The position numbers were made by a program, and so were the translations under genes. This document shows, piece by piece, positions 3,588-58,971 of a stretch of DNA of 64,000 nt. Source of the stretch: Eledone cirrhosa (taxonomy: Eukaryota); NCBI GenBank assembly GCA_964016885.1, contig OZ024741.1, positions 45,942,001-46,006,000 of the forward strand, in the 5' to 3' direction. Every line of letters starts with the position of its first letter. The first letter of the stretch is position 1. The notes under the pieces were generated by a model. It did not search any database. It saw only the letters and a program-made list of their open reading frames with translations, and was not told where the DNA came from.

Positions 3588-3592
3588 ATAAC

Positions 3593-3631
<39 letters not shown>
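3586..3631. repeat. (TAA)n microsatellite: Dong tail/target and Tx1 insertion site
   Basis: Direct reading. The tract resumes at 9522-9588 on the other side of the Tx1 element. Confidence 0.95.
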
Positions 3632-6800: not shown

Positions 6801-7294
6801 AGACTCTTGCACCCTCCTTCCCTATCCACTAATCCCACACAATCCCAGCGTGCATCTAAGATCCCGTTCCAGTCGCCCACTAACACTAAAGAGCGGGACG
6901 TTCCAAGAAAGGTCTCCAGACGCCGGAAGAAATCAGGCCGCCCTGCTCCTGTCGGGGCATAGACGGCCACTAACCTGAAAGCTTGCCCGTCTCCGCTGGT
7001 CACGTCCAGCACCACCAACTTACCTTCTGGGTACAGGAAGATGGCCCGTATGGCTAGATCCAAACCTCTCCGAAAAAGCACAGCAACTCCTCCCCCCGAT
7101 CCCGGACGGCTGGGAGATGCGTACACATCGTAGCCGCCGAAGATCGGTGCGAAAGCCTGTGCTTCGGAGATTCTGGTCTCGCTGATGGCCACTACATCTA
7201 TGGTTAGTGACCTGAGGTCGTTGAGCAGGTGGCCCTGCTTCCATGACGATCCCAAGCCACGTGCATTTATGCTGCCTATTCTGAGTGAGGTCAT
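3875..7294 (-). pseudogene. Tx1 ORF2: apurinic-like endonuclease + reverse transcriptase + C-terminal CCHC; one premature stop
   Basis: Motifs SINARGL, ISET, VYAP, GDWN, YLDR, YTDH (APE); SPGLDG, NFRPITLLN, DQSKAFD, VRQGCPLS, YADD (RT); CPRCAQGDETVLHALVQC. ORFs 5138-7294 and 3875-5128 are in the same frame, split only by TAG at 5138-5140. Confidence 0.92.
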
Positions 7295-7328
7295 GTTGAA
7301 AAGGAGTGGAAAAGATGGGAAAGACCAC

Positions 7329-13900: not shown

Positions 13901-14893
13901 ATTTACTGCTGAAATGGAAAACACAGAAAAAGCAAAGCAGGTAAAAGTAACTGCAAAGAAAGAACTGCTACAGAAACTGGCTAAGAAATGGCAAGAAAAG
14001 CCTCTGTATGGAAAATACCCAGAGCGAGCTAACAATCCTGATGTTGACAAAACTTTAACCCATCAGTGGTTGGCATCCTCTGAACTGAAATCGGAGACTG
14101 AAGGACTGATTATATCCGCACAAGATCAGTGTCTGCCAACAAAAAATTACCAAGCCAACATAATAAAAAATGGGTGCAGCCCATTATGCCGTGTATGCAA
14201 AAAACAACCAGAGACCATTGACCATAAAATTTCAATGTGCAGTCCTATAGCTCCAACCGAATACCTAAACAGGCATGACAGAGCTGCACAATACATACAT
14301 TGGATAATGTGTAAGCATTTTGACCTGCCCCATCAAAAGAATTGGTGGGAGCATCAACCACCTCCCATACTTGAAAAAGATCACATCTCAATCTTGTGGA
14401 ACTTTAGCATCCAAACAGACCGAAAAATAGATGCAAATAGACCTGATATAATATTGAAGGACTTTCAAAGGAGGGTATGCCTGCTAATTGATATGTCTGT
14501 TCCAATAGACAAGAATGTATCTATAAAAACATTTGAAAAATTGAGCAAGTATAAGGACCTGGAGATAGAAATTGGAAAAATGTGGAAATTGAGAACTAAA
14601 ACAATACCAGTGGTTGTAGGCGCTCTGGGAATGATACCTAAGGGGTCTAACGACTACTTATCGCAAATCCCAGGAAACCCGCGTATAGGAGAAATACAAA
14701 AGATAGTACTAATGGGAACTGCCCATATACTAAGGAAGATCCTGTCAATATAAGTACATCACAAGTCTAAACACTAAGGATGCATGTGTGAATATGTATG
14801 TTCTTTCTTGAACATGGCGGACCTTGTTGTCTCTTGAGGTCACTGGTTGTGACTTGGTGATAACTCGTATAAACATAAAGCAAAATAAATGCA

Positions 14894-15165: not shown

Positions 15166-15618
15166 GAGAAGAAAGAAGAATACTGCGTGGTCGCACATGG
15201 GTTACATATGATAAAAATAGTCCTTCGTCAGTGATTTTCCAACCATCATTGGTATTTCATCGCATTAAAAATCATATACCTCAGGTTGGTGCGAGCAATA
15301 ACTAATAAAAGTTATTGGGACCAGTAAATCGCGTAAAGCGAGGGGGACAAGTGAACAACATAGAAGGATAAAAGCAAACCAAAGAAAGGAAAAAAACAAG
15401 CAACATGGTAGTCCTGGTCAGCATAAGCTGGGTGGATTTCATGAGCGAAAGGTACAGACGTCCGACCTGAGTGAGATGTAAGCAAGAAGAGACCCACTGT
15501 AAACCAAACGGGAGGAAGTGAGAAGGGGAGAAACAGAGAATGGGTGAGAGTAAGTGCGAGGAAGCGGTCAGTCGAGAGAAAGTGTAACTGACGGGGGGGG
15601 GCGAAAGAAGGTGAGAAT
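15160..15618 (-). mobile_element. Non-coding PLE-derived/retrozyme-like element carrying a permuted HHR; diverged relative of 61537-62320
   Basis: (TA)n on both sides. The ribozyme and interior align loosely with 61575-61890 (e.g. GGTGGA..GA..GA, AACGGGAGGAAG). Confidence 0.6.
15220..15321 (-). ncRNA. Non-circularly permuted (pseudoknotted) hammerhead ribozyme, family 2
   Basis: Minus strand reads GGUAU-A-UGAUUUU ... U-GAAAUACC ... AAAAUCA-CUGACGA-A. Stem III is 5 bp, stem I is 7 bp, A10.1-U11.1. Predicted cut between 15275 and 15274. Confidence 0.75.
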
Positions 15619-15639
15619 ATATATATATATATATATATA

Positions 15640-15743
15640 TTCCGGGTTGAATTGGAGATAACCACAGTAAGTAAGGTACTCAATACATAGCAGAGTACCT
15701 TACTTACTGTGGTTATCTCCGATTCAACCCGGAATAACTTACC
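15640..15743. repeat. Palindrome of the 3' tail of PLE-derived family Y, within (TA)n
   Basis: TCCGGGTTGAATTGGAGATAACCACAGTAAGTAAGGTACTC followed by its reverse complement. The same tail occurs at 38074, 42440-42505 and 52516. Confidence 0.85.
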
Positions 15744-15814
<71 letters not shown>

Positions 15815-16420: not shown

Positions 16421-16471
16421 TATATATATATATAATATAAGATCAAAAGATGGTTAAAGGAGTTCCATATA

Positions 16472-16538
16472 TTTTATTATGCGCATTTCAAAAACAAACA
16501 TCATCAAGCAATAATATTTGTGTTTTCATCAGATAAAA
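16472..16538 (-). ncRNA. Minimal type I hammerhead ribozyme, PLE-1 left arm
   Basis: Mirror of 20763-20829. Confidence 0.8.
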
Positions 16539-17520
16539 CAGGAGAACATGATATGAAGGCTAAAAAAAACACTTGTTGATAGTGCAGTTTTAAATCAACA
16601 TATGAAAAGTGGTTTTAGATTGATGTGTGATATTGGGAAAAATATTTTATTTAGAGAGGGGAGGGAAAGGATGAAAAGGGAAGGAGATGAGAGGGAGAGA
16701 TGGGTGATAGAGAGAAAGAGATAGTTTTTATAACTGAGAGGAGATATATTTTTTACATAGAGGGGTTGAAAACCGTTGGAAGATACTGTATAAATTAAAA
16801 ATTTTGAAAATTAACGAAGGGAGGATATGTGCGAGGAAAAAATATTTTATTTAGGGGGGGGGTGGAAAGGATGAAAAAAAGGGGGGAGGAGATGAGAGTG
16901 AAGGTGGAGAGGGAGAGATGGGTGATAGAGAGAAAGAGATAGTTTTTATAACTGAGAAAAGATATATTGTTTTAATATAGAGAGGTTGGGAACCGTTGGA
17001 AGATAATGTATAAATTAAAGGAATTTGAAAATTAACGAAGGGAAATTATGTATGAAGATAGAGAGAAAAAAAAAATAATAATTGTGGGTGAATATTCTAA
17101 CGTCAAAAGAAGAAATGTATGTATTGTGGCAATTTCAAAATTAGCGAAGAGAAAGATTGTTAAGGTTTGTGTGTAGAAGGATTTGAGAAAAATAATGTGA
17201 AGTTAAAGTTTGTATATTGAATTGATATGTATTAATAATGAGTTCGTTGATGGGGAGAAAAAAATAATAATAAATTAAGGATGAAATTGAGATTAAAAAG
17301 ATTTATGATATAGAGAAAAAATAATAATGATTGCGGATGAATATTCAAAATGTCAAAAACAAATGTTATTATTTTACGAGAAGATAGAATGAGGGTAATG
17401 AGTAAACGAGTATTATAGAGTGTATAATGCCCTTTAAAGTAAGGTAGATGGGTATATTTTAAAGAGGTGTATGTATATGTGCCTTTGAGAAAAGATTCTA
17501 AATTGATAAAGAATTGAATA

Positions 17521-18374
17521 TTAACTGTATACTTTGTGAAAAGTTCTATGGAATTTATGCAGGCAGATAGAAAACAAATCTGAGCGTCTATTTATTATAG
17601 ATTCTAGGTTAGAGATAATGGTAAATTTTTCATTTAGGCAGAGATTACAGATTTTAGATAGAGAGCTGTTCAAGTATGAGGATGCAGAAGAAATCTTTTT
17701 CCAAAAGATGTTATATTTAATGTTTTTGTCTTTTAAGGACCATATGAGTTCTGAGAGAGCAGTGTTAGTTCTTTTAAGTTTGTATTTGAAAGATGAATGA
17801 TGATTATAGAGACGAGCTTTAAAAGAGGTGGAAGTGGAGCCAAAATAGGTGAAGGAATTGGTGCTAGTTATAATTTTACATTCATAAATTAAGTTTTTAT
17901 CGAGGCAATGGTTGTTGAGAGGACATTTATTTTTAATGCGGCAGTTGCAATTATTAATGAGTGATCTAGTGTTATCTATAGAAGGAATTGGATTGGAGAA
18001 GTTGTTTGCGATAGGAATAATAGGAATAATAGTTTCTTGATTTAGAGTTGGATTATGAACATTTAGCGAAGTTGTGTTTGACGTTGTATTTGGGTTTACA
18101 GAAGTTAGCCTAGGGTTTACAATGACGTCGGGAGTACTATTACTGTTATTATGAAATTCAATATTGGAAGGAAGAGATTTAGTATTTAATATTTTGTTGT
18201 TGTGTTTAGAGATGATGTTGGAAATATTGGAGGATGTAGAATACGAAAATTTGATGGTGTGTTTGTTAAATATTTTACTATAGATATGTGAGGGAGGGAA
18301 GCATTTATTTAAGGCGCTAAAAAATAATTTAGGAATATTGTTATTAATAGAGATGGAGAAAGGAGCATTATACC
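17521..18374 (-). pseudogene. Mirror copy of the PLE-1 C-terminus (Zn finger + GIY-YIG)
   Basis: The translation is nearly identical to the + arm. Confidence 0.88.
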
Positions 18375-18386
18375 GATTCATCCCAA

Positions 18387-19776
18387 TTGACTGATTTAAT
18401 TGGTATCTTCATTTTGAACTCTTTGAGTCGGAAAATTCCTCAACTTCGCGGTGGAATTTATCGTGACGATGGACTCTTTACTATCCTAAATTGCATTATA
18501 GTTAAACTTAATATTATTAAGAACAATATACGTAATCTCTTTAACCAACATAACCTAAAAATTGAATTTGATAATAGTATCAAACTAGCTAATTTCTTGG
18601 ATGTATCTCTTAATCTTGACACTGGCCTATATTACCCTTACCATAAAAACAATGAGAATCTTAATTATGTTAACTTTAAATCTAACCATCCTACCAATAT
18701 CAAGAATGCTATAGTTAATAATATTGGAAATAGAATATCTAACATACCTTCTAATAAAAACATCTTTGATGCTAACGCCAATTACTATAATAACGCACTT
18801 TCTAAAGCCGGCTATCCAGATAAAATCAAATATAATAAAGAAACACATTCTAGGAAAACTTACAGTAGAATAATTAATCATGACCATTCCAATAATTTTA
18901 ATAAAAGACCTAGATACAAAAACATAATCTGGTATAATGCTCCTTTCTCCATCTCTATTAATAACAATATTCCTAAATTATTTTTTAGCGCCTTAAATAA
19001 ATGCTTCCCTCCCTCACATATCTATAGTAAAATATTTAACAAACACACCATCAAATTTTCGTATTCTACATCCTCCAATATTTCCAACATCATCTCTAAA
19101 CACAACAACAAAATATTAAATACTAAATCTCTTCCTTCCAATATTGAATTTCATAATAACAGTCATTGTAAACCCTAGGCTAACTTCTGTAAACCCAAAT
19201 ACAACGTCAAACACAACTTCGCTAAATGTTCATAATCCAACTCTAAATCAAGAAACTATTATTCCTATTATTCCTATCGCAAACAACTTCTCCAATCCAA
19301 TTCCTTCTATAGATAACACTAGATCACTCATTAATAATCTCTCTAATTGCAACTGCCGCATTAAAAATAAATGTCCTCTCAACAACCATTGCCTCGATAA
19401 AAACTTAATTTATGAATGTAAAATTATAACTAGCACCAATTCCTTCACCTATTTTGGCTCCACTTCCACCTCTTTTAAAGCTCGTCTCTATAATCATCAT
19501 TCATCTTTCAAATACAAACTTAAAAGAACTAACACTGCTCTCTCAGAACTCATATGGTCCTTAAAAGACAAAAACATTAAATATAACATCTTTTGGAAAA
19601 AGATTTCTTCTGCATCCTCATACTTGAACAGCTCTCTATCTAAAATCTGTAATCTCTGCCTAAATGAAAAATTTACCATTATCTCTAACCTAGAATCTAT
19701 AATAAATAGACGCTCAGATTTGTTTTCTATCTGCCTGCATAAATTCCATAGAACTTTTCACAAAGTATACAGTTAA
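18387..19776 (+). pseudogene. PLE-1 RT C-terminal half + Zn finger + GIY-YIG endonuclease; 5'-truncated, frameshift near 19164
   Basis: ORFs 18387-19178 and 19144-19776. The mirror copy 17521-18381 (-) is open across the deletion. Confidence 0.88.
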
Positions 19777-20762
19777 TATTCAATTCTTTATCAATTTAGA
19801 ATCTTTTCTCAAAGGCACATATACATACACCTCTTTAAAATATACCCATCTACCTTACTTTAAAGGGCATTATACACTCTATAATACTCGTTTACTCATT
19901 ACCCTCATTCTATCTTCTCGTAAAATAATAACATTTGTTTTTGACATTTTGAATATTCATCCGCAATCATTATTATTTTTTCTCTATATCATAAATCTTT
20001 TTAATCTCAATTTCATCCTTAATTTATTATTATTTTTTTCTCCCCATCAACGAACTCATTATTAATACATATCAATTCAATATACAAACTTTAACTTCAC
20101 ATTATTTTTCTCAAATCCTTCTACACACAAACCTTAACAATCTTCCTCTTCGCTAATTTTGAAATTGTCACAATACATACATTTCTTCTTTTGACGTTAG
20201 AATATTCACCCACAATTATTATTTTTTTTTTCTCTCTATCTTCATACATAATTTCCCTTCGTTAATTTTCAAATTCCTTTAATTTATACATTATCTTCCA
20301 ACGGTTCCCAACCTCTCTATATTAAAACAATATATCTTTTCTCAGTTATAAAAACTATCTCTTTCTCTCTATCACCCATCTCTCCCTCTCCACCTTCACT
20401 CTCATCTCCTCCCCCCTTTTTTCATCCTTTCCACCCCCCCCCCCCTCCCTAAATAAAATATTTTTTCCTCGCACATATCCTCCCTTCGTTAATTTTCAAA
20501 ATTTTTAATTTATACAGTATCTTCCAACGGTTTTCAACCCCTCTATGTAAAAAATATATCTCCTCTCAGTTATAAAAACTATCTCTTTCTCTCTATCACC
20601 CATCTCTCCCTTTCATCTCCTTCCCTTTTCATCCTCCCCCCCCCCTCTCTAAATAAAATATTTTTCCCAATATCACACATCAATCTAAAACCACTTTTCA
20701 TATGTTGATTTAAAACTGCACTATCAACAAGAGTTTTTTTTAGCCTGTATCATGTTCTCCTG

Positions 20763-20829
20763 TTTTATCTGATGAAAACACAAATATTATTGTTTGATGA
20801 TGTTTGTTTTTGAAATGCGCATAATAAAA
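20763..20829 (+). ncRNA. Minimal type I hammerhead ribozyme, PLE-1 right arm
   Basis: UUUUAU-CUGAUGA-AAAC...UUUU-GAAA-UGCGCA-UA-AUAAAA. The palindromic stem III is typical of PLE dimer-cleaving HHRs. Confidence 0.8.
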
Positions 20830-20971
20830 TATATGGAACTCCTTTAACCATCTTTTGATCTTATATTATGCATACTCCAGTCCCACAAACTGTAGAGTGC
20901 TTCTTATCCGATATCTGCATTGCTTTATTGTACTACAATAAAACTCACCTCCTACATTATATATATATATA

Positions 20972-29401: not shown

Positions 29402-29452
29402 TTTTATTATACATATTTCGGATGTACAACAGTACGTCCTCATCAGACAAAA
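29402..29452 (-). ncRNA. Minimal type I HHR
   Basis: UUUUGU-CUGAUGA-GGACGUAC-UGUU-GUACAUCC-GAAA-UAUGUA-UA-AUAAAA. The mirror at 31694-31744 has G5C (CUCAUGA). Confidence 0.78.
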
Positions 29453-33797: not shown

Positions 33798-34174
33798 AAT
33801 TCCATATATGGTCAAAGAGATAATCACCAGGATTGGTCACATCACAAGTTAGTAGTAAATCTGTGATGGCAAGTTGGTGGGGGAAGGGGTAGCTAAACCT
33901 GCCGGTAGGAGAAAACTGGAGAGGGGGTGGAGTAGACCCATTCATGCGTTGGTAGTGCCAGCTACAGCTGGGTGTGAGGTCAAAGAGGATACTGGGGAGG
34001 GGGAGGGGGAGGAGGTCGAAACGGTAAGTAGAACAATGAAAGGTAAAACTATAAAAGGTACTGAGAGAGAAAAAAAAAAGCAAAATCTGGTTACTGAGAC
34101 TTAAGTCTCTCGCTATTGCTAGGCTAAAGAAATACATAAATAAATAAATAAACAAATAAGTGAATAAAAGAATA

Positions 34175-35562
34175 GAGAGCTACTATGCTTCAATCACCTT
34201 ACCGCTACTTACTGCCGCCTTGGACTTCGCCGAAGCACTTGTGCCCATCACCGACCAGGAAAGAAAAATCATCCTCCACGCCAGGAAGACAGTCTTACTC
34301 TTTGACAACTCCAAATGGATAAAAAGAGCTCCTGACTCACCCTTCGACGTCAGCATGGGCGCCACTGATTCGGCGGAGGTCACAGATCTTATAGGATTAC
34401 TCCTTATAGCCAAACTCACCGATTTGTTTCCTGCTTTCGGTGGTGGATTGTACCGTGATGATGGGCTCCTTACCCTTAGAGGGTACAACCGCAGTAGTAC
34501 AGATCGGGTCCGTAAACAATTAATTAGCTTCTTCCGCGACTGGGGATTTAAAATAACCCTACAAACGTCCCTGACCCGAGTTAATTTACTGGACGTTACC
34601 CTCGATCTCAATAATGATCTGTACTACCCATACAGGAAACCCAATGACAACCTGCACTACATCCACCGCCGATCTAACCATCCTAGGAACATCACCAACA
34701 ACCTGGTCAAAAACATCTCCCTCCGTATATCCCGTTTGTCAGCTAATGAGAAGATATTCGATGAACATGCGCCTTACTACAACCAGGCCCTCAAGCGGAG
34801 TGGTTTCCGGGAGGAAATATCCTACTGTCCAGCTCCCATTAGCGGAACCAGCAGGCGACACCGCCGCTCACGCAATGTAACATGGTTCAATCCTCCCCAC
34901 AACGCTGAGGTGACAACTCCCATCGGGAAAATTTTCTTTAGGCTCATTGAAAAACACTTCCCACCACAACACCGCTACCACAACATAATTAACAAAAATA
35001 CCATCAAACTCTCTTAAGCACTACACCTAACTTCGCACAAAACATCGTCTCCTCCAACAACAAAAAACTCAACCCCGATGGAAGAAACAACCTAAATAGC
35101 AGTGGAGAGCCGACCAGGAGGCGCAACTGTCCGGATAGATCCAGTTGCCCCCTCGACAACAGATGCAGAGACCGTAATGTGATCTACCAGTGCAACGTGA
35201 GCACGGACACCTCCAACAAAGCTTATATAGGATTAACCGCATGCGACTTCAAGACCCGGCTATACCAACACAGACATACCTTCCGAAACCCGGCCCGGCG
35301 TCACGCCACTACACTTTCGGTCCACATATGGGACCTCAAGGACAACAACATCAACTATGATCTCACTTGGAAATTATTGTCCAGAGCCAACTCTTACACG
35401 GGAGGACGCCGTCCGTGCAATTTATGCTCGGAGGAAACATTACAAATGTTGTTTTCGACTGACCAACTCCTAAACAAGAAAGATGAACTGGTTACTGCAT
35501 GTAAACACCGATTACGTAGAACATACCTCGCCCTCAAACCCCATAATGACCCGGGGGGGTAG
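34175..35562 (+). pseudogene. PLE-2 RT (5'-truncated) + Zn finger + GIY-YIG; 1-nt frameshift near 35017
   Basis: Motifs FDVSMGATDSAEVTDLIG, GGLYRDDGL, SNHP, WFNPP, NCPDRSSCPLDNRC, VIYQC..AYIGLT..FKTR, CNLC, LLNK. Confidence 0.9.
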
Positions 35563-37054: not shown

Positions 37055-38034
37055 TTGAATTGAGATGGGGGATCTGTGGTTTTTCTCGCATCTGGTTGGT
37101 GTTCGAATGTTACTTTTGTTTTATGTGGAAAAAAAGTGGCTCGAAATGCTAGGTTTTATAGAAAAGTAATTTGGTTGGTTGATGACTGTCACGTGAATAA
37201 CTAAAATAAATTTCACGCCAGTTCGCGTTACAAAGTTCTTGTATTTGCCTTTAAAAAAGGGGGGCTGAGATTGTTTTTTCATATATGAGTGAAATTTGGT
37301 TGGTGGATACAGTTACGTTAATAAGCACATCAACTTTTGCGTCAGTTTGAGTTTGAGGGTTCTTTATTGTCATTTTCACTTAAAAAAGTGGCTCAAAAAT
37401 GTTCTTTTTTTTATAAATGTAATTTGATTGGTTATGACTGTCACGTGAATAAGTCCATTAAATTTCGCACCAGTTTGTATTTGTCGGTTCTTTGTAGCCG
37501 TTTTCACAGTTACATGATTTGTCATAGAGAGTTTTGTGCAAAAGATAATGGTCAAGAAAAAAGGGATGGGGAGATTTGTTCTGGTTCAGTGAGTATTCTG
37601 ATGTGCTGAGGTGTCAAACTTCAGACTTTCTATTGAAATAAAGAAAATAGAGATATATACTTTTATTTGTGTGTGGATTGTGTGTGTGTGTAGGAAAATG
37701 ATTCCATTAGTAGAAATTGAAAAGGGAGTTATGTGTGTGTGTATGGGTGTTATATGTGTGTGTGTATGTGTGTGGGAGTATGGTTATCGTGTTAAGGTGG
37801 TGGGGACAGAGTAGAGAATATAAATTTTTGTGTGTGTATGTAGGAAAATGATTCCATTAGTAGAAATGGGGAGGGAGTTATGTGTGTGTGTATGGATGTT
37901 ATATGTGTGTGTGTATGTGTGGGGCGAGGTATGGTTAGCATGTTAATGTGTTAGAGTATTAATATATGTTAAGGTCTATCTAGCTCTGATTTTTATTTTC
38001 GAATATAGAAGAGGGTGTTATGTGTATGTATGTG

Positions 38035-38073
<39 letters not shown>

Positions 38074-38243
38074 GTTATTCCAGGTTGAATCGGAGGTAAC
38101 CACAGTAAGTAAGGTACTCAATACATTGCAGAATATAAAAGTTTAATATAGATGAGATTCTACAGGACTAGAACTGTTTCATTCTTTAGAAATCATCTGA
38201 TGATTTCTAAAGAATGAAACAGTTCTAGTCCTGTAGAATCTCA

Positions 38244-38251
<8 letters not shown>
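38074..38251. mobile_element. Family Y head-to-head palindrome centred on an HHR core
   Basis: Palindrome 38145-38251; + strand CUGAUGA-UUUC-UAAA-GAAU-GAAA-CAG-UU at 38197-38224. Confidence 0.8.
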
Positions 38252-38316
<65 letters not shown>

Positions 38317-42323: not shown

Positions 42324-42505
42324 AAAATGTTTAACCCCGACAGCAGAGCTCAAGCCGTTTCGACGGCTTTTTCTGGACAGAAAAAGCCGAATGAAACAGT
42401 TCTAGCCCTGTAGAATCTCTTCTATATGAAAACTGTTATACTCTGCTATGTATTGAGTACCTTACTTACTGTGGTTACCTCCGATTCAACCTGTAATAAC
42501 TTACC
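42321..42505. mobile_element. Chimeric head-to-head insertion: PLE-2-related 3' end (-) joined to family Y 3' end (+)
   Basis: 42334-42375 resembles the reverse complement of 36797-36838; 42389-42505 matches family Y. (TA)n on both sides. Confidence 0.75.
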
Positions 42506-42538
42506 TATATATATATATATATATATATATACATTTAA

Positions 42539-42614
<76 letters not shown>

Positions 42615-42700
42615 AATATATATAAATATACATATCCATATATATATATCTCTATATATATAGAGATAGTTATGTAATAAACAACATAAGGCAATTATTC

Positions 42701-42754
42701 CATTTACCAGTGGTTTCTTAAAAGCAAAAAATGTTGCTTTCAATCATCAGAATG
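42701..42754 (-). ncRNA. Minimal type I HHR (PLE-3), the only copy with an intact core
   Basis: CAUU-CUGAUGA-UUGAAAGCAA-CAUUUU-UUGCUUUUAA-GAAA-CCACUGG-UA-AAUG. Copies at 44611-44664 (-), 46532-46585 (+) and 47865-47918 (+) carry core or cleavage-site mutations. Confidence 0.8.
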
Positions 42755-42905
42755 AAAAAATCCTGGTCTGTTTATTGATATTGGATTTTAAAAACAAAAA
42801 TGCAATCTATATGAAAGTGAGGTTGGAGAAAGAAGAAGGAAAGGAAAAATAAGATAAAAACACACATGCAAACACACACACACACACACACAGAAATCCA
42901 TACAT

Positions 42906-43017
<112 letters not shown>

Positions 43018-43329
43018 CATACACTCATACATACACACACACATATACACATATATATGTGTATATATATACACACATACACATACATATACACATACAT
43101 ATACACATACATATACACATAAATATCAACACATCCATACATACATATACATATATAGAACCACACACACCTATATATAGAAATAGAAATATATATATAT
43201 GCATACACATACACATACATAGCCATACACACATATACATACATACATACATACATACATACATACATACATACATACATACATACATACATACATACAT
43301 ACATACATACATACATACATACATACATA

Positions 43330-43886
43330 GTGGCTGCCAACTCGTTTTCGAGTACGGCCACTACTTTATATCCATGTAGGAGAACCCCTACCGATGCGCT
43401 GAACGAATGTGTCTTTTTAGTCCAGCCAGCGACTTGAAAACTCTGGTACAAAGACTACACTTGTGACCATTATTGACACATAGTGCAGGGCCCATGATAC
43501 CATGTGATGACAAGTGCAGAGAGATCTCCAGATATAAAGCAATGCCTGTGCTGTGAAGCTTTTATAGTGAGCAAAGGCACTGCACAAAGCCAGTCCCACT
43601 CTCTTAACCAAGATGATATTTACCAAAAAGCAGAACAAGTCAACATCATTGGATACCATCAGAGTTGCAGGTGTTATATCAGAGTTTTCTTTCTCCTAGA
43701 ATTCTGCCTTGACAAAGGCTAAGGGGTCATCTCTCCCGGTGATTTTGGATGGCTATTGAGTCTTAAGAGCTCCCTTGCCCTTTGACAGGTTTTGTTTTTA
43801 GTCCTGCAGGATGTCTAAAGTCACCCTCCTCACCAAGAAACCTTGGTGGGGTTGCCAGTTTAGTCGCCAACGACCCGACCATGAGA
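43330..43886 (-). mobile_element. ~560-bp insertion in (CATA)n resembling a non-LTR retrotransposon 5' UTR or a derived SINE
   Basis: Absent from the mirror arm. The minus strand has CTAGGAGAAAGAAAACTCTGA, which I recall from RTE-type 5' UTRs. Confidence 0.55.
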
Positions 43887-44316
43887 CATACATATATACA
43901 TACATACATACATACATACATACATAAATACATACACACAATCATACCTATATACACACGTACATACATACACATACATAAATGCAGACATGTGCATGTA
44001 TAAAATTAGAAAAATATGCACACACTTCTACATATTCACACACGCAAATAAATATAAGAAAAAATATATATAAAAAATAAAATAATAAAAACTATTATAC
44101 AGTTGACAGCGATACAGGCAACGAATAAATGAATAAACACGTGTGGTAAGCAATACACACAAATGCACGTACACATACATACGTAAAAATAAATATATAC
44201 GCACACTCTCACACATAAATATACATATACAAATACATAAACACATACATACGCATACACAAATACATACACAAACACACACACACACATATACATATAT
44301 ACACACACATATACAT

Positions 44317-44365
<49 letters not shown>

Positions 44366-44697
44366 CACATACACATATACACACATATATATATACACAC
44401 ACACATACATAGCTATACAATTATACTCATACAAATACGTACATATCACAAACACTCACAACCAAATACAAAAACACACACATATATATATATATATATG
44501 TGTGTGTGTGTTTAAAACTCAATCTTAAATAATTCATATGAACCTTATATAACTCCAAAATATACATATACATATATAGTAATGTAATAAACAACATAAG
44601 GCAATTATTCCATTCGCCAGTGGTTTCTTAAAAGCAAAAAATGTTGCCTTCAATAATCAGAATGAAAAAAACCTGGTCTATCTATATATATATATAT

Positions 44698-44742
<45 letters not shown>

Positions 44743-45174
44743 CACATACATACACATACGTTTTGGTATGTGAAGGGTAAGGCAAAAAAAATATATTTGA
44801 GGGGGAAAGGAGGGGGGAAAAAGACATAGGAAAAGGTGAAATATAAGGGGAGATAAGAGAAAAAAAGAATACAAGAGTACAGAACGTGGATTCAGCAGGT
44901 AAAAAAACCGTAGTAGAAGTAAAGAGCAGATAAGGAGTTCAAGGTGGTTGAGTTATCATAGGAATGTCAATCCAGTTACAGATCAGATGTGGTTTAAGAT
45001 GAGGACAGCATCTGAAGATCTCGGTCTTTGAGTTTAGGCAAGCCGAAGTGGCTCTCAAGTTTAGCAAAATCCTATATTTTTCTGTGGTACACAAAGAACA
45101 ATTCTTTGTGCCCCGTTGGTACTCCCTCGAATGGTTTAAGGTAGACCAATCGATAGAGTATGGGATGTTACTAA

Positions 45175-46220
45175 ATTCCGTAAAGATTTAATCAATACTC
45201 TTGCTAATCCTAACCTTAAAATCACTATAGATACGAACCTTACCAATGCTAACTTTCTTGATATTAATCTTAATCTACTTACCGCCTCTTTTAAACCTTA
45301 TCATAAACCTAATGAAAATCTTAGTTATATACACAAAGAGTCTTGCCATCCCCCTATAGTTTTTAATAATCTTATTCCCAACAATAGCGGTAGGATTTCT
45401 ACCTTATCTTCGTCTATAGACATTTTTATTAAAGCCACCCCTTATTATAATAAAGCCCTTAAGAACAGCGGTTTTACAGAAACATTTTTTTATTTACCTA
45501 CTCCCCTCCCCCCTCTAAAACTAACCACAATAACAGGAAAAGGAAAATTATTTGGTTCACACCCCCCTTCTCTCTAACTGCCAAAACTAATGTAGGAAGG
45601 AAATTCCTTGAACGCTTAGACAAACATTTTCCTCCTAATCATAGATATTATAAGATATTTAATAGGAACGTAGTTAAGATCAGTTACTCTTGTTGCCCAT
45701 CTATGAAGTCCAAGATCACTAGTTCAAATCATACGAGAACAAACCGAGGATGCAGTTGCAGGAAGCCGGATGAATGCCCATTGCAGGGTAAATGTAACAC
45801 CAAATCTGTTGTTTATGAGGCTAAAATAACACCGTTAATCAGCAACCAGCCAGCCAGGAGTGAGCGATATGTCGGCATGACGCAGGACAGGTTTAAACCA
45901 GGTTTTACTCACATGTCGCTTCTTTTAAGCACTCCGATAAACGAACAACAACGGCCCTCGCAAGTAAGGTGTGGGAATTCAAGGATAGTAACATCCCGTA
46001 CTCTATCGATTGGTCTATCTTAGACCATTCGAGGGAGTACCAAAGGGGCACAAAGAATTGTTCTTTGTGTACCACAGAAAAATATAGGATTTTGCTAAAC
46101 TTGAGAGCCACTTCTGCTTGCCTAAACTCAAAGACCGAGTTCTTCAGATGCTGTCCTCATCTGAAACCACATCTGATCTGTAACTGGATTGACATTCCTA
46201 TGATAACTCAACCGCCTTGA
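45175..46220 (+). pseudogene. PLE-3 RT thumb + Zn finger + GIY-YIG, frameshifted
   Basis: Motifs NFLDINLNL, SCHPP, WFTPPFS, CSCRKPDECPLQGKC, VVYEA..YVG, CSLCTTEK, LNSK. Confidence 0.85.
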
Positions 46221-46416
46221 ACTCCTTATCTGCTCTTTACTTCTACTACGGTTTTTTTACCTGCTGAATCCACGTTCTGTACTCTTGTATTCTTTTTCTC
46301 CCTTATCTCCCCTTATATTTCACCTTTTCCTATGTCTTTTTCCCCCTCCTTTCCCCCCCCTCATATTTTTTTTTTGCCTTACCCTTCACATACCAAAATG
46401 TATGTGTATGTATCTG

Positions 46417-46501
<85 letters not shown>

Positions 46502-46694
46502 ATATAGAGAGAGAGATAGACCAGGTTTTTTCATTCTGATGATTGATGGCAACATTTTTTGCTTTTAAGAAACCACTGCTGAATGGAACAATTGCCTTAT
46601 GTTGTTTATTACATTACTATATATATGTATATGTATATTTTGGAGTTATATAAGGTTCATATGAATTATTTAAGATTGAGTTTTATACACACAC

Positions 46695-46759
<65 letters not shown>

Positions 46760-46867
46760 TTGTATTTGGTTGTGAGTGTTTGTGATATGTACATATTTGT
46801 ATGTGTATAATTGTATAGCTATGTATGTATGTGTGTGTGTATATATATGTGTGCATATGTGTATGTG

Positions 46868-46962
<95 letters not shown>

Positions 46963-47444
46963 ATGTGTGTGTATACGTGTGTGTATATATGTATATGTGT
47001 GTGAGTGTGTTTGTGTATGTATTTGTGTATGCGTATGTATATGTTTATGTATTTGTATATGTATATTTATGTGTGAGAGTGTGTGTACGTATTTATTTTT
47101 ACGTATGTATGTGTACGTGCATTTGTGTGTATTGCTTACCACCCGTGTTTGTTCATTTATTCGTTGCCTGTATCGCTGTCAACTGTATAATAGTTTTTAT
47201 TATTTTATTTTTTATATATATTTTTTCTCATATTTATTTGCGTGTGTGAATATGTAGAGGTGTGTGTATATTTTTCTAATTTTATACATGCATATGTATG
47301 TATTTATGTAGGTGTATGTATGTAAGTGTGTATATAGGTATGATTATGTGTATGTATGTATGTATGTATGTATGTCTGTATGTATGTATGTATGTATGTA
47401 TGTATGTATATGTATGTGTGTATGGCTATGTATGTGTATGTGTA

Positions 47445-47501
<57 letters not shown>

Positions 47502-47667
47502 TTCTATATATATGTGTGTATATATGTGTGTGTGGTTGCATATATGTATGTGTATGTATGGATGTGTTGATATTTATATGTGTATGTATGTGTATATGTA
47601 TGTGTATGTGTGTATATATATACACATATATATGTGTATATGTGTGTGTGTATGTATGAGTGTATGT

Positions 47668-47711
<44 letters not shown>

Positions 47712-48141
47712 ATGTATGCATTTGTATGTGTGTGTGTGTGTGTGTGTTTGCATATGTGTTTTTATTTCATTTTTCCTTTCCTTCTTCCTTCTCCAGCCTC
47801 ACTTTCATATAGATTGCATTTTTGTTTTTAAAATCCAATATCAATAAACAGACCAGGATTTTTTCATTCTGTTGATTGAAAGCAACATTTTTTGCTTTTA
47901 AGAAACCACTGGTAAATGGAATAATTGCCCTATGTTGTTTATTACATAACTATTAAGCTCTGTTACCTACATAGAGCACTCTTTTTCCAAACAGTGAGTG
48001 TGTTCTGTTATTAATTCTGGCAATATTACACAAATATTGCCAGAATTAATAACAGAATTAATAACAGAATATATAAGAGACAGAATACTTTTTTGTGAAA
48101 AAACATAATTTTATAAGGTAAGGAAATAATAAAGGGTATAA

Positions 48142-48189
48142 AAAATGACCGGTTTCGATGGGTCTGCAAAAGCCATCTTTTCAAATGTT
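48142..48189 (-). ncRNA. Minimal U3:A8 HHR (PLE-4); mirror at 50906-50950
   Basis: AACAU-UUGAAAA-GAUGG...CCAUC-GAAA-CCGG-UC-AUUUU; stem I is weak. Confidence 0.6.
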
Positions 48190-48643
48190 GATTAATATTA
48201 AGAAAAATTAATAATACGAAGAGTTAAAACTTGAGATTTGAAAATTCAAGTATAAAATTCATTGTGGGATTTCATAGCAGTTTTCATCTAGGTAGCAACA
48301 ACAGGTTGACTGCTGTGTCCCTTTCTGGTAGTGAATGAGAAGTTATTTGGGGTGTGGGTTATTTTATAAAGGTCACATTTAGCAATCGTCAACTGGCCAG
48401 CTGCTGGTAAGTGAGGGGGTGGAAGCAATATACATACACATATCTTCCTGTGGTGCATATGAGAGTGGAGCGTGATAGAAAGGGATTTAGTGCACTTACA
48501 CCTATATATACACACATACCTTCACCCACACATACATACATATACATATACATATACATATATATATATATATATACATATACACACATACATACACACA
48601 AACATACATATACATACACACATACACACACATATATACACAT

Positions 48644-48692
<49 letters not shown>

Positions 48693-48759
48693 TATATATA
48701 CATACACATACATCCAGATACACACATACATACACACACACACACACATATATATATAT

Positions 48760-48834
<75 letters not shown>

Positions 48835-48835
<1 letters not shown>

Positions 48836-49844
48836 GTTTAAAAACATGATAAACAACATAGATAATAACATACAATTCACAATGGAATCCAATCCTAAGG
48901 AATTAGCCTTCTTGGATATTCTCATCTCTGTAATAGACGGGAAATTAGATACAGATATATTCTATAAACCCACAGATTCCAAGCAATACCTCTTTTTCAC
49001 ATCAAGTCACCCAAAACATACAAAACTTAACATTCCTTACAATTTGGCCAAACGTATATGTACCATAGTATCAGATCCACCTAAACGGGAGCAAAGACTA
49101 AAGGAACTAAAAGACACCCTTATCTTAAGAGCCTTTCCACTTGAAATAATCAACAATGGAATAGACAGGGCAAAACACCTAAATCCCCATCAACTTAACA
49201 ATCCAAAACAGAAAACCACACTAAACACCCTGCCATATGTATCCACTTTCAACCCCAGAAATACCGAAATGTTTGATCACCTACACAAAAACCTCCCCAT
49301 CCTACTTAAAGATGTAAAAATGAAGTCTATTCTTGAAACACACAAGATCCTTAAAAGTAAAAGACAACCCAAATCACTTAAACGCATTCTCACTGGACCA
49401 AATATACCCAAACCAATCCTCAACCCTACAGTTACCAAATGTGGTAGAACAAACTGTGGAACGTGCCTCTACTTCACTGAAGGACAAACATTTACATTCA
49501 AAGATGGCCAAACATTTACAGTAAAAAACAATTTCACCTGCAACTCGGAGAACTTGATTTACGCAATAACTTGCGGTGGGTGCAAACACAACTACATAGG
49601 ACAGACGGGCACCTCATTACGCAAAAGAATGACCATCCACCGCCAACAAATCCGGGACGCTAACACAAGAAAAATCCCCTTGAGCAGCCATATTGCGAAC
49701 TGCGCAGGAATGACACTACCCAACTTTAAAATCTTCCCCTTCTACAAGTGCTCAGATTCGTTCACACAGCAACAAAGAATAAACAAAGAAAATCTATTCC
49801 TTAACAAATTTAAACCAAAACTAAACGGGTTATCACCCCAATAG
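48835..49844 (+). pseudogene. PLE-4 RT thumb + CxxxxCxxC finger + GIY-YIG; 5'-truncated but open
   Basis: Motifs [60 protein letters not shown]. The ORF track's N-terminal extension is microsatellite. Confidence 0.9.
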
Positions 49845-50288
49845 AATTGTCATAAAATATAAACACACATACGCACGGAATCACTACTATTAAAGACCAG
49901 AGACCAATTCTGTAGAATCAGGTTTATTCGTTGACAGACCATGCCTTTGTGTGACCAACACATCCATGTTAAACCCTGCACGTGCACACACATATACCTA
50001 TATATATATGCGCACACAGAATTCACCACTGTCGGTTGCGGGGCCCAATCTACATGAAGAACTCAATGTGATCAGAATGACTTGTATTTTAATTTCACTG
50101 TCCCAACTTCTTATATTATGGAAAAAATATGTGTCTGTATGTATATATATATATATATTTGGAGGCCATTTCTCTGTGTGGGTGTATGTATGTGTATATG
50201 TGTGTGTGTGTATATGTGTGTGCATGTGGATGCATGTATTGTGTGTGCGTGTGTGTGTGTGTGTGTGTATGTATGTGTGGGGGTGTGA

Positions 50289-50338
<50 letters not shown>

Positions 50339-50381
50339 GTGTGTGTGTGTATGTATGTGTGTATCTGGATGTATGTGTATG

Positions 50382-50428
<47 letters not shown>

Positions 50429-50501
50429 GTGTGTGTGTGTATGTGTATATATGTGTGTGTATGTGTGTATGTATATGTATGTGTGTGTGTATGTATGTGT
50501 G

Positions 50502-50560
<59 letters not shown>

Positions 50561-51086
50561 GTATGTGTGGGTGAAGGTATGTGTGTATATATAGGTGTAA
50601 GTGCACTAAATCCCTTTCTATCACGCTCCACTCTCCTACCCACCACAGGAAGATATGTGTATGTATATTGCTTCCACCCCCTCACTGACCAGCAGCTGGC
50701 CAGTTGACGATTGCTAAATCTGACCTTTATAAAATAACCCACACCCCAAATAACTTCTCATTCACTACCAGAAAGGGACACAGCAGTCAACCTGTTGTTG
50801 CTACCTAGATGAAAACTGCTATGAAATCCCACAATGAATTTTATACTTGAATTTTCAAATCTCAAGTTTTAACTCTTCGTATTATTAATTTTTCTTAATA
50901 TTAATCAACATTTGAAAAGATGGGTCTGCAAGACCGAAACCGGTCATTTTTTATACCCTTTATTATTTCCTGACCTTATAAAATTATGTTTTTTCACAAA
51001 AAAGTATTCTGTCTCTTATATATTCCATGTGCCATTACCAACCTCAATTTTCTCTATAACCTTCGTTTTGTGTAGAAAATTACACT

Positions 51087-51132
<46 letters not shown>

Positions 51133-51436
51133 CTTTCATTTATATATTTATACTCGGATTTTTTTCCTAGAGTGCTTAAATTATTTGTGACTAATCCCGG
51201 TTTTTTTAATAAAAACTGCGATAATATTGCTTTTTACTGAACTCCTTTCGTAGAGTTTTTTTTCGGAATGTTTTTGACTGTTGTTTCTTTTAAACAAACA
51301 TTCGCCTCATTCTAACGTCACTAGCCCTGTCTTTCCTCATTTGCGTTTTTCTTAATCACGCATGATGGTGAACTAGCCAGTTTTAAAATTCCCTTTTTGG
51401 CATATAGATCTGTGAGAGTCCTGGTTATCGAGTTGA

Positions 51437-51516
51437 GCTCTGCTGACGATTGAAATCCAACCGTGACCATTTCCACTGAAAGTTTTCATGAAATAGTCTT
51501 TAAGACTATACAGTGC
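51437..51516 (+). ncRNA. Type I HHR, tandem unit 1
   Basis: GCUCUG-CUGACGA-UUGAAA...UUUCAU-GAAA-UAGUC-UUUAA-GACUA-UA-CAGUGC; cut after 51510. Confidence 0.78.
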
Positions 51517-52063
51517 ATTTGAAGTTTTTCCAAATTGAAGGATGAGTATTTTAGACTTTATTTTATCATGAGTTAAGGCTCTATTGATTTTTCCCTGGAT
51601 TTCACTAAATTCTGGGGATGAATTTATAACCCGATTCTCTTTGAGATGATTTTGAATTATTTTTCCCACATCTTACGTTAACTATTTTTCCCATTTTGAC
51701 GCTATAGTCGCATATATGTCATGGAATACTGTTAGCTTTTCGCTACAACAATTTCTATACCTTTCATTTATATATTTATACTCGGATTTTTTTCCTAGAG
51801 TGCTTAAATTATTTGTGACTAATCCCGGTTTTTTTTATAAAAACTGCGATAATATTGCTTTTTGCTGAACTCCTTTCGTAGAGTTTTTTTCGGAATGTTT
51901 TTGACTGTTGTTTCTTTTAAACAAACATTCGTCTCATTCTGACGTCACTAGCCCTGTCTTTACTGATGTGCGTTTTTCTTAATCACGCATGATGGTGAAC
52001 TAGCCAGTTTTAAAATTCCCTTTTTGGCATATAAATCTGTGAGAGTCCTGGTTATCGAGTTGA

Positions 52064-52143
52064 GCTCTGCTGACGATTGAAATCCAACCGTGACCATCTC
52101 CACTGAAAGTTTTCATGAAATAGTGTTTACGACTATACAGAGC
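52064..52143 (+). ncRNA. Type I HHR, tandem unit 2
   Basis: Perfect stem I GCUCUG/CAGAGC; cut after 52137. Confidence 0.78.
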
Positions 52144-52392
52144 ATTTGAATTTTTTCCAATTTGAAGGATGAGTATTTTAGACTTTATTTTATCATGAGT
52201 TAAGGCTCTATTGATTTTTCCCTGGATTTCACTAAATTCTGTGGATAAATTTATATCCTGATTCTCTTTGAGATGAGTTTGAATTATTTTTCCCACATCT
52301 TACGTTAACTATTTTTCCCATTTTGACGCTATAGTCGCATATATGTTATGGAATACTGTTAGCTTCTCGCTACAACAATTTCTATACCTTTC

Positions 52393-52440
<48 letters not shown>

Positions 52441-52471
52441 TTAAACATATATAAATATACATATCTATCTA

Positions 52472-52515
<44 letters not shown>

Positions 52516-52517
<2 letters not shown>

Positions 52518-52688
52518 TAAGTTATTCCTGCTTGAAACGGAGGTAACTACAGTAAGTCAGGTACTCAATACATAGCACAGTATAAACGTTTTCATATAGA
52601 AGAGATTCTACAGGACTACGACTGTTTCATTCGTGAGAAATCATCAGATTCCTGATGATTTCTCACAGTTCTAGTCCTGTAGAATCTC

Positions 52689-52692
<4 letters not shown>
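52516..52692. mobile_element. Family Y head-to-head palindrome with HHR core
   Basis: Minus strand CUGAUGA-UUUC-UCAC-GAAU-GAAA-CAG-UC; the arms meet at about 52648-52651. Confidence 0.78.
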
Positions 52693-52730
<38 letters not shown>

Positions 52731-56075: not shown

Positions 56076-56430
56076 GTTATTAGGAGTATTCCAAAGCTTG
56101 GTAGAACAAGTTGTGAGGAAAGTTCTCAACATACGTTAAGGTGACTCGACAGGTTGGTAGGGATTCTGTAGTGGAAACACGAACAATTGAGGAGTGTAAT
56201 CAAAGAAGAGAAATAGGACGAAGGTAAACAATTACAAAAGAATTTAATCCACGTATTAACAATTGTTTCATCAGAATTTCAGTCCATTATTGCTACACTA
56301 TGTTATAATAGGCAATCAAGGAAGATACTGTGGCATCCGAATTTTCAAAATACAAAGTTGGAATGACCTTAGGAAATGAAATAAGGGGTAGTAGTGTAAG
56401 ATAGAGGAACAGAGAGAGAGAGGGGCAAAA

Positions 56431-56491
<61 letters not shown>

Positions 56492-57165
56492 GATAGAGGT
56501 AGGGAGAGAAAGAGAAAGAGATAGTATGGTGTGAGAGGATTTGTATAGGGAGGGGGAGGAGGGCTGTGTGCTAAAAGTTGTGATGAGTAGAGGGAGAGAG
56601 AAGGAAGATAGAATTTTAAGAGGCATTTGGAAGTGGACAGGCGAAAGTCTTACCAGAGAACAGATGAAGGAAGAAAGTATTAAATTTCATATATAGTCTA
56701 TTTTTAGGGGTGTAGAATTGTTATTTAGAGTAGAAAGATAGGTAGTGTTAGGATTTGGTTGAAGGTTTGAAGTGTGAGAATTTCGCTTTCAGTTTATGCT
56801 GGCAAAAAATTGACCTTTCAATTCTGTTGTTGAGTAGTTGGTGGCTTGAGCTTAGAATATGGAAGAGCTCATTATTGCACAACGGGCACGTTTTCATCCC
56901 ACTCCGTTATGGAGGAGCATGTGAGAGTTTGGTCCACATTGTCGGTTATTCCCTTTTAAGTGCCACATTTTGTCGGCGAGAGTCGTTACGTAACGGTTTT
57001 GGTGGTGCTTTATTGCGTAACGATGCGTGTACCAACGAGTTTTGAAGGTGTTTGCAGTGCTGCCTATGTAGTACCAGGTTTGGTTGCCCGACTCAACCGA
57101 GCACCTGTATACTAGGTTTGAATGCAAACATTCGTTATTCAATGGACAAGTCTCTGGAAGGTGGC

Positions 57166-58345
57166 CTTGGCCTTAAAATCACCTACGAATATAGTACCAA
57201 AGTAGTTAACTTCAACCTCAACACCCAAATTATCACACCCTTTCACAAAAACAATGAGAACCTCACCTACATACACACTAGCTCTAACGACCCACTATCT
57301 ATTATAAGGTCCTTGCCACATAGTATATCACTTAGAATATCCCGCCTCTCATCTAACCAACAAATATTCGATCAACACGCTGAATACTACAACACTGCAT
57401 TAGAACGGGCTGGCCACACCGACAAACTAGAATACATGGACCCACACAACCATAAAACACATAACCACAGACACGCCAAACGCCGCACAAACACCCGCAC
57501 ACACGCACCTAGACCCCCTAATACTAACCACACCACAAATACAACAGCAACATCACAGCAAAACAGAATACGGAGTAGATCTTACATTTGGTATAATCCT
57601 ATTTTTAACTCTTCTATTAGCTCTAACTTATCTTCCACATTCTACAAAATTATAAAAAAAACACTTTCCAAATTCACATAAATATAGTAGTATACTTAAT
57701 ACCAAAACAATTAGACTATCTTATTCCACTGCACCAAACCTAGACGCACACATTAAGATGCTCAACGCCAAAAAACTCCGTAATAACAACACCCCAATCG
57801 CTCAACACAATAATACATCTAATACACAACCACCCACTAACAATCAGTATGCACAAAACACACTCACACACACATCCCAGCCCACCTATAACTCCACCAC
57901 TGCCCATAACAGAAATTGTAATTGCCACCTTCCAGAGACTTGTCCATTGAATAACGAATGTTTGCATTCAAACCTAGTATACAGGTGCTCGGTTGAGTCG
58001 GGAAACCAAACCTGGTACTACATAGGCAGCACTGCAAACACCTTCAAAACTCGTTGGTACACGCATCGTTACGCAATAAAGCACCACCAACACCGTTACG
58101 TAACGACTCTCGCCGACAAAATTTAGCATTTAAAAGGGAGTAACCGACAATACACCCTTAAATGGACCAAACTCTCACATGCTCCTCCATAACGGAGTGG
58201 GATGAAAACGTGCCCGTTGTGCAATAATGAGCTCTTCCATATTCTAAGCTCAAGCCACCAACTACTCAACAACAGAATTGAAAGGTCAATTTTTTGCCAG
58301 CATAAACTGAAAGCGAAATTCTCACACTTCAAACCTTCAACCAAA
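57166..58345 (+). pseudogene. PLE-5 RT thumb + Zn finger + GIY-YIG, disrupted
   Basis: Motifs GLKIT, YIHTSSNDP, WYNPIF, CNCHLPETCPLNNEC, LVYRC..YYIGST..FKTR, CPLCNNE. Confidence 0.85.
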
Positions 58346-58715
58346 TCCTAACACTACCTATCTTTCTACCCTAAATAACAATTCTACACCCCTAAAAATA
58401 GACTATATATGAAATTTAATACTTTCTTCCTTCATCTGTTCTCTGGTAAGACTTTCGCCTGTCCACTTCCAAATGCCTCTTAAAATTCTATCTTCCTTCT
58501 CTCTCCCTCTACTCATCACAACTTTTAGCACACAGCCCTCCTCCCCCTCCCTATACAAATCCTCTCACACCACACTATCTCTTTCTCTTTCTCTCCCTAC
58601 CTCTATCCCTTTTTTCTCTCTCTCTCTCTCACTCCCTCTCTTTTGCCCCTCTCTCTCTGTTCCTCTATCTTACACTACTACCCCTTATTTCATTTCCTAA
58701 GGTCATTCCAACTTT

Positions 58716-58816
58716 GTATTTTGAAAATTCGGATGCCACAGTATCTTTCTTGATTGCCTATTATAACATAGTGTAGCAAAAATGGACTGAAATTCTGATG
58801 AAACAATCGTTAATAC
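58716..58816 (+). ncRNA. U3:A8 HHR with a long stem II insert (PLE-5); mirror at 56253-56353 (-)
   Basis: GUAUU-UUGAAAA-UUCGGA...UCUGAU-GAAA-CAAUUG (left copy)-UU-AAUAC. Confidence 0.65.
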
Positions 58817-58866
58817 GTGGATTAAATTCTTTTGTAATTGTTTACCTTCGTCCTATTTCTCTTCTT

Positions 58867-58971
<105 letters not shown>

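Follow-up and report, generated by a model that had tools for sequence, protein, structure and literature searches.

The window analysed here (the whole stretch of 64,000 nt from Eledone cirrhosa, to which all coordinates refer) contains a tandem array of two consecutive hammerhead-bearing units, the arrangement used as the working definition of a non-LTR retrozyme by Li, Clavereau & Pollet 2026 (bioRxiv 10.64898/2026.07.22.740005). The array belongs to a widespread family of non-coding 627-nt repeats. This family is likely a non-LTR retrozyme that depends on Hydra-clade Penelope-like elements (PLEs) as their non-autonomous passenger. The array itself probably arose when a non-autonomous hammerhead tandem, mobilised by a PLE, entered a (TA)n tract as a 2.03-mer through target-primed reverse transcription, an account in which we infer the PLE partner, the priming step, the cleavage and the circle.

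The array lies on the plus strand between two (TA)n tracts with no strand assigned, one at 51091-51129 and the other, interrupted, at 52396-52515, which are the putative insertion target. Unit 1 (51131-51758, 628 nt, 33% GC, 41% T, non-coding) is followed by unit 2 (51759-52385, 627 nt) and by the 16-nt start of a third unit (52386-52401), which merges into the right tract. The original prediction of about 2.03 head-to-tail units between (TA)n tracts is borne out by this layout. The two units differ at 22 positions (21 substitutions and one indel; BLAST identity 96.5%). A TATA-rich site inside the array (51768-51780, plus strand) recurs at 51140-51151 and from 52395 on; copies of the family appear to end here in (TA)n, and the site might have provided microhomology for priming. 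Both flanks are (TA)n, in which a target-site duplication is unreadable, and none is visible. LTR structure is absent, and the GC content of the unit is below 50%. The array has no ATG-started ORF of more than 50 codons (the longest has 50), and its best match to PLE proteins has an E-value of only 0.57, with no RT/GIY-YIG ORF carrying a CxCX5C linker. A reading of the unit as a tRNA-SINE was rejected, because the unit lacks Pol III A and B boxes and the window lacks tRNA genes.

Four of nine listed public sequencing runs, none of which is from RNA, were compared with one rotated unit (51290-51916). For the runs of organism A, which may not be the species of the window, the best share of words was 0.38. 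In X1 (organism A, with the same proviso) 1,992 contig records match the unit, 383 of them at 99% identity or more, 661 at 95-99%, 664 at 90-95% and 284 below 90%. X7, a RAD library, has 4,124 matching reads out of 12,467,656, while 49 records match in X6 and 3 in X5. One X6 contig (contig 12, 487 nt, from another organism code) spans the unit boundary into the next hammerhead with 26 other letters and 5 gaps relative to the unit, and the head-to-tail junction thus occurs beyond this locus. These matches indicate that the unit is a dispersed, multi-copy family; the claim is limited to "many copies" because summed contig depth is not a copy number. A single-copy local duplication, the outcome that would have spoken against the original prediction, therefore does not describe the family, and the kind of element proposed there is supported: a non-LTR retrozyme-like tandem that is present in many copies, does not code for protein and carries hammerheads. 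Scans of viral collections (1 and 0 loci), of metagenomes (8 loci) and of genome contigs (2 loci) returned chance motif matches without flanking homology.

The 3' end, near 51780, appears to be common to the copies of the family, whereas their 5' ends seem variable or truncated. In X7, 274 reads exit the unit at 51780 into (TA)n (agreement 0.59), the same TATA-rich site at which the array itself ends, whereas 5' loose ends are found at 51424, 51432 and 51515 (among 20 of the 308 loose-end rows). Permuted start positions had been proposed as a check for a circular template; the ends point instead to the shared 3' end and variable 5' ends. The permutation test cannot separate a circle from a read-through transcript, since fixed priming should be possible on a circle too. 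Three further sets of positions were set aside. In X7, differences at 51781-51842 and reads that break off at 51762 and 51860 (about 375-445 reads, 1-3 starts) likely come from one diverged RAD locus; read ends at 51536, 51611 and 51655 were rejected as element ends, being diverged or library-dependent places; and a depth dip at 51605-51646, where unit 1 has several changes of its own, was treated as an alignment effect.

Summed depth in X1, which is not copy number, is about 92,600 on 51458-51772 versus about 11,000 on 51290-51436. In the 60 nt past the TATA site, which may be a tail like that of PLEs, it is 49,600, and then 16,500 (51836-51916). In X7 the depth on 51458-51604 is, by our arithmetic, about 3.3 times that on 51290-51436. 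The climb in X1, roughly eightfold, is located at the 5' edge of the hammerhead (51437-51458), and in three contigs a different upstream sequence joins the unit at 51432. Candidate causes of the rise are reverse-transcriptase stalling, a second subfamily or the autonomous partner. The profile as a whole agrees with a shared 3' end and truncation at the 5' side, but it may also owe something to stronger conservation of the 3' half, to edge effects or to kindred families whose 5' parts differ. The greater depth of the half from the hammerhead to the 3' end in both runs, the step at the hammerhead edge and the three contigs could also be accommodated if the unit were the untranslated terminal repeat (pLTR) of an ORF-bearing Hydra-type PLE and the locus a truncated tandem of that end instead of a non-autonomous family in its own right; PLEs do form partial tandems. 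We consider this unlikely: the unit contains no ORF remnant, the X6 contig from another organism follows the full path from junction to next hammerhead, and an ORF-less head-to-tail period of 627 nt requires a non-coding template.

The differences between the two units bear on how the tandem arose. Nineteen differing sites fall in the compared part of unit 1. At 12 of these unit 2 has the letter of the family and unit 1 is private; the other 7 are absent among 40 of the 187 variant rows, which suggests that at these it is unit 2 that departs from the family. A share of 12 in 19 does not differ from an even split (binomial p 0.36). At about ten further family-variable sites, again among 40 of the 187 variant rows, both units share the minority letter. 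It is likely, on these letters, that both units descend from one variant and have aged side by side, as would be expected from rolling-circle copying, from a homogeneous tandem source or from an early local duplication. The last of these could have been the doubling in place of a single 1.03-unit insertion by unequal exchange between the 16-nt terminal repeats or the TA tracts. Such a doubling would account for the shared alleles, for the comparable numbers of private changes (12 in unit 1, at most 7 in unit 2) and for the start and end of the array being no more than 16 nt out of register with each other, for which random ends would give a chance of about 5%. Two TATA microhomology sites at a spacing of 16 nt would produce the same agreement in register, however, tandem continuity exists elsewhere in the family, and even a 1.03-mer requires a template longer than a unit, so that local doubling seems decidedly improbable.

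Each unit contains one type I hammerhead motif on the plus strand, copy 1 at 51428-51522 and copy 2 at 52055-52149. By the standard hammerhead numbering and core consensus, which agree with the papers cited in this work, the motif has the CUGANGA, GAAA and UH elements with closable helices I to III. Stem I begins at 51437 and 52064, the CUGACGA cores start at 51443 and 52070 (51443-49 and 52070-76), and the predicted cuts, after A51510 and A52137, are exactly 627 nt apart. Stem I of copy 1 (51437-42/51511-16) is interrupted at 51514 by a U·U mismatch that is private to this copy, and a predicted extension (51428-33/51517-22) lies beyond a 3-nt bulge; the core is followed by a U·U (51450/51489), stem II (51451-55/51484-88) and GAAA (51490-93). 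Copy 2 has a perfect 6-bp stem I. In both copies stem II consists of the U·U at its base, 5 bp and a loop II of 28 nt, and the G10.1-C11.1 pair is absent, with U·U in its place. The cleavage triplet is AUA and the arms of helix III are 8 nt long. Helix III of copy 1 (51493-51509) is a perfect 8+1+8 palindrome, whereas in copy 2 two changes (52125 and 52130) shorten the fold to 5 bp (-1.7 kcal/mol). Each copy at the locus is damaged in its own way, and neither is pristine. In the family stem I is intact, with A at 51514 in 829 of 845 X7 reads, and 305 of 814 X7 reads have one extra T in the loop of helix III.

A descriptor of the motif (at least 3 bp in stem I and at least 4 bp each in stems II and III) matched only one of 20,000 dinucleotide shuffles of unit 2, searched on both strands, versus 1,976 for the bare core alone. 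The hammerhead motifs first noticed at 51437 and 52064, with predicted cuts one unit apart, are confirmed. Rfam gave no hammerhead match at the gathering threshold, nor any among the 28 rows at E<=10, and the motif is therefore a variant and not a textbook hammerhead. Published hammerheads that open stem II with U·U retain part of their activity (PMC7229834, PMC3088659); the axolotl Amex2 monomer, which has it, cleaves 22% in 1 h (PMC7229834).

The same features point to a particular clade of PLEs. Hydra-clade PLEs use (TA)n as their insertion target (Craig et al. 2021, PMC8557442). In File S2 of that paper, counted by eye, stem II opens with U·U in 14 of the 26 Hydra-clade hammerhead rows, followed in 10 of these 14 by UG...CA as in the array, and a palindromic helix III with a 1-nt centre is present in 17 of the 26. 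All 26 rows have a GUH triplet, helix III arms of 3-4 nt and a loop II of at most 10 nt. The array thus resembles Hydra-clade PLEs (PMC8557442) in its insertion into (TA)n, in its sense-strand hammerhead near the 3' end, in the U·U followed by UG...CA in stem II, and in the palindromic helix III with a 1-nt centre. It differs from them in having no RT/endonuclease ORF, in its AUA instead of GUH triplet, and in the greater length of its helix III arms (8 nt versus 3-4) and loop II (28 nt versus at most 10).

Remnants of PLEs of the Hydra-clade type are found in the window at 16432-20869, 34160-35562, 42666-47953 and 56199-58870, and most of them have a second copy in inverted orientation. Of 12 ORF pieces compared with Pfam, 4 were recognised; the Hydra-type pieces were not among these and were classed by motif using the definitions in PMC8557442. 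The four ORF remnants have the Hydra endonuclease marks CxxC..E..N..CxH (at 19648, 35416, 46059 and 58211) and lack the Cys pair inside GIY-YIG, and three have the CxCX5C linker. One copy of the element with its ORF at 18351 ends at an internal TATA site into (TA)n, while the other copy continues for about 90 nt more; this element shows the same end rule as the array. The element at 45140 shows a similar but less clean divergence of its copy ends. No sequence match was found between the unit and the PLE ends within the window, nor between five short words from the unit and the PMC8557442 supplement. The partner is proposed from anatomy only, since no sequence homology links the unit to the PLEs of the window.

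A further PLE, of the Neptune/Nematis type, lies directly upstream of the array (48067-51090). It has a GIY-YIG domain near 49550 (Pfam E-value 3e-6), a linker of the Neptune/Nematis type with a CCHH motif, and a second, inverted copy of its 5' part. Near 50915-50945 it contains the decayed remains of a minimal hammerhead, and its 3' end abuts the left (TA)n tract of the array. Its named relatives are molluscan (Argonauta, 51%; Saccostrea, 48%), which hints weakly at the host. Additional type I hammerhead-like cores with differing stems occur at 20769 (plus) and 16532 (minus), 42750 (minus) and 47869 (plus), 29446 (minus) and 59153 (minus). The core at 42750 has a 10-bp stem II that opens with the same six letters as the array motif, and the cores at 20769, in a Hydra-type remnant, and at 29446 have the AUA triplet of the array motif. 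The stem I region matches a different repeat of the window over 13 nt, a length that by rough estimate is at chance level, and this match was disregarded.

In the mechanism that we propose, the GIY-YIG endonuclease of a PLE would nick (TA)n, and the nicked DNA would pair with the internal UAUAUA site of the unit and prime reverse transcription. The enzyme would then copy an RNA longer than one unit, passing the cleavage site twice, and the other end would be joined at the second TATA site, 16 nt upstream in register, after which both units would decay separately. The template might have been either a ribozyme-cut and re-ligated circle of 627 nt or an uncut read-through transcript of a tandem. 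Odds between these two are about even; the apparent descent of the units from one variant tips them slightly towards the circle. At the cut site there is no step in depth (91,600 before versus 112,200 after in X1; 778 versus 797 in X7), so that a cleaved linear monomer does not seem to be the usual template, and since copies run through the site, both a circle and uncut read-through RNA fit.

Self-cutting of the motif and RNA circles are predictions. The UAGUC/GACUA hairpin originally described as stem III is complete in copy 1, but copy 2 has the two changes noted above. The conclusion drawn from it, that cleavage could occur in the monomer, does not follow directly. Invertebrate type I hammerheads are described as commonly having a stable helix III (PMC7761336), and that of copy 1 folds as a 7-bp hairpin at -4.8 kcal/mol; because it is a palindrome, however, dimer folding is also possible, at -17.4 kcal/mol for a duplex of two copies. 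Stem II is predicted to be the weak part of the ribozyme. In calculations that ignore tertiary contacts, Mg2+ and proteins, the active fold makes up 2-4% of the ensemble for the isolated motifs. Copy 2 keeps this share when up to 40 nt of flank are added and drops to 0.2-0.3% at 100-200 nt, whereas copy 1 falls to 1e-4 to 1e-6 once it is given flanks. A check for contact between loops I and II found complementarity of 4-5 nt between loop II and the flanks, which is at chance level. In the cut-to-cut circle of the locus, the three hammerhead helices have a probability of at most 0.02. Circular folds have z values of -2.6, -1.7 and -3.1 (40 shuffles), with 59-62% of bases paired versus 57% in shuffles, and the circular monomer is predicted to be only modestly stable.

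The poorly populated active fold, the modest stability of the circular fold and the continuation of copies across the cut site would all suit a linear, uncut read-through template, with the hammerhead as a weak or protein-dependent passenger of the same PLE-mobilised family. Only the template is at issue in this alternative, which leaves the assignment of the family as it stands. There are precedents for it: in the green anole PLE (Frangieh et al. 2024, PMC11167929) the uncleaved RNA is the dominant template and hammerhead cleavage is dispensable and protein-assisted, and only one of nine predicted Xenopus retrozyme dimers cleaved, the other eight showing no cleavage (Li et al. 2026). Other observations count against it. 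The family allele, A at 51514, restores a perfect stem I, a stem II that starts with U·U does not preclude cleavage (Amex2, PMC7229834; PMC3088659), Cervera & de la Pena 2020 (PMC7229834) found circles in each of the three animal species whose retrozymes they tested, and the two units look as if copied from one variant. A linear template is thus a real possibility, although one that we hold with less than even confidence.

The anole Poseidon PLE (PMC11167929) resembles the array in its internal, fixed start of reverse transcription, its AT-rich target and its copies made from RNA not cut by the hammerhead. It is autonomous, with a hammerhead that overlaps the start of its ORF. The end of the array coincides with TATA microhomology, whereas the priming site of the anole PLE is not homologous to the cut DNA, and the microhomology step in our proposal is weakened by this (PMC11167929). 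The most specific version of that proposal would be an invertebrate, possibly cephalopod, retrozyme tied to Hydra by the anatomy of its ribozyme, in which the 8+1+8 helix switches between monomer cutting and dimer, the RNA forms a 627-nt circle, and nicked (TA)n primes by pairing with the internal UAUAUA; taken together, these steps seem rather unlikely.

The array shares with animal non-LTR retrozymes (PMC7229834; Li et al. 2026) a non-coding head-to-tail structure with one type I hammerhead per unit, a GC content below 50%, the lack of an LTR, many copies, and the presence of PLEs in the same genome. It is unlike them in its 28-nt loop II and 8+1+8 helix III, and in its place within (TA)n, where its copies have a 3' end in common and a target duplication is not to be seen. 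At 627 nt its unit is longer than the 170-400 nt circles tested in coral, mussel and axolotl (PMC7229834). The length was originally thought unusual for an animal element, but published retrozyme consensus sequences span 51-972 bp, with a mean of 650 in ray-finned fish (Li et al. 2026), and 627 nt is therefore not exceptional. The pDo500 satellite of Dolichopoda cave crickets (PMC2837043) is similarly a tandem with one hammerhead per unit and a more conserved hammerhead region; it is described as satellite DNA, whereas the array is a dispersed 2-mer in a microsatellite.

Retrozymes are already described as a class, and the family would add an invertebrate case that points to a specific PLE clade, Hydra. 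A PLE origin of retrozymes has been argued for vertebrates, and Li et al. 2026 state that they did not look at this relationship in other organisms. The fixed priming site and the unusually long helix III and loop II make the family suited to tests of circle versus uncut read-through templates, and if the reading as a Hydra-tied circle were true, it would offer a direct test of circle-templated reverse transcription by a PLE. The family was not found in literature on cephalopod retrozymes, octopus Penelope hammerheads and non-autonomous Hydra PLEs, a search outside which most subscription journals, Repbase and Dfam fell and which is no proof that the family is unrecorded.

Several other repeats are present in the window. 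Immediately downstream of the array there is another (TA)n-flanked repeat (52516-52700), with related copies near 15600-15810, 38030-38255 and 42390-42630. In three of the four, the sequence terminates in a long fold-back whose position varies from copy to copy, and the copy at 52516-52700 folds at a z of about -11, with a hammerhead-like core inside the hairpin. ORFs of non-LTR retrotransposons occur at 344-3631, 3875-8916 and 11105-14753. Two of them have RVT_1 matches and end near (TAA)n tracts, and are RTE-like by our reading; one, on the minus strand, encodes an endonuclease and an RT and reads as L1/Tx1-like.
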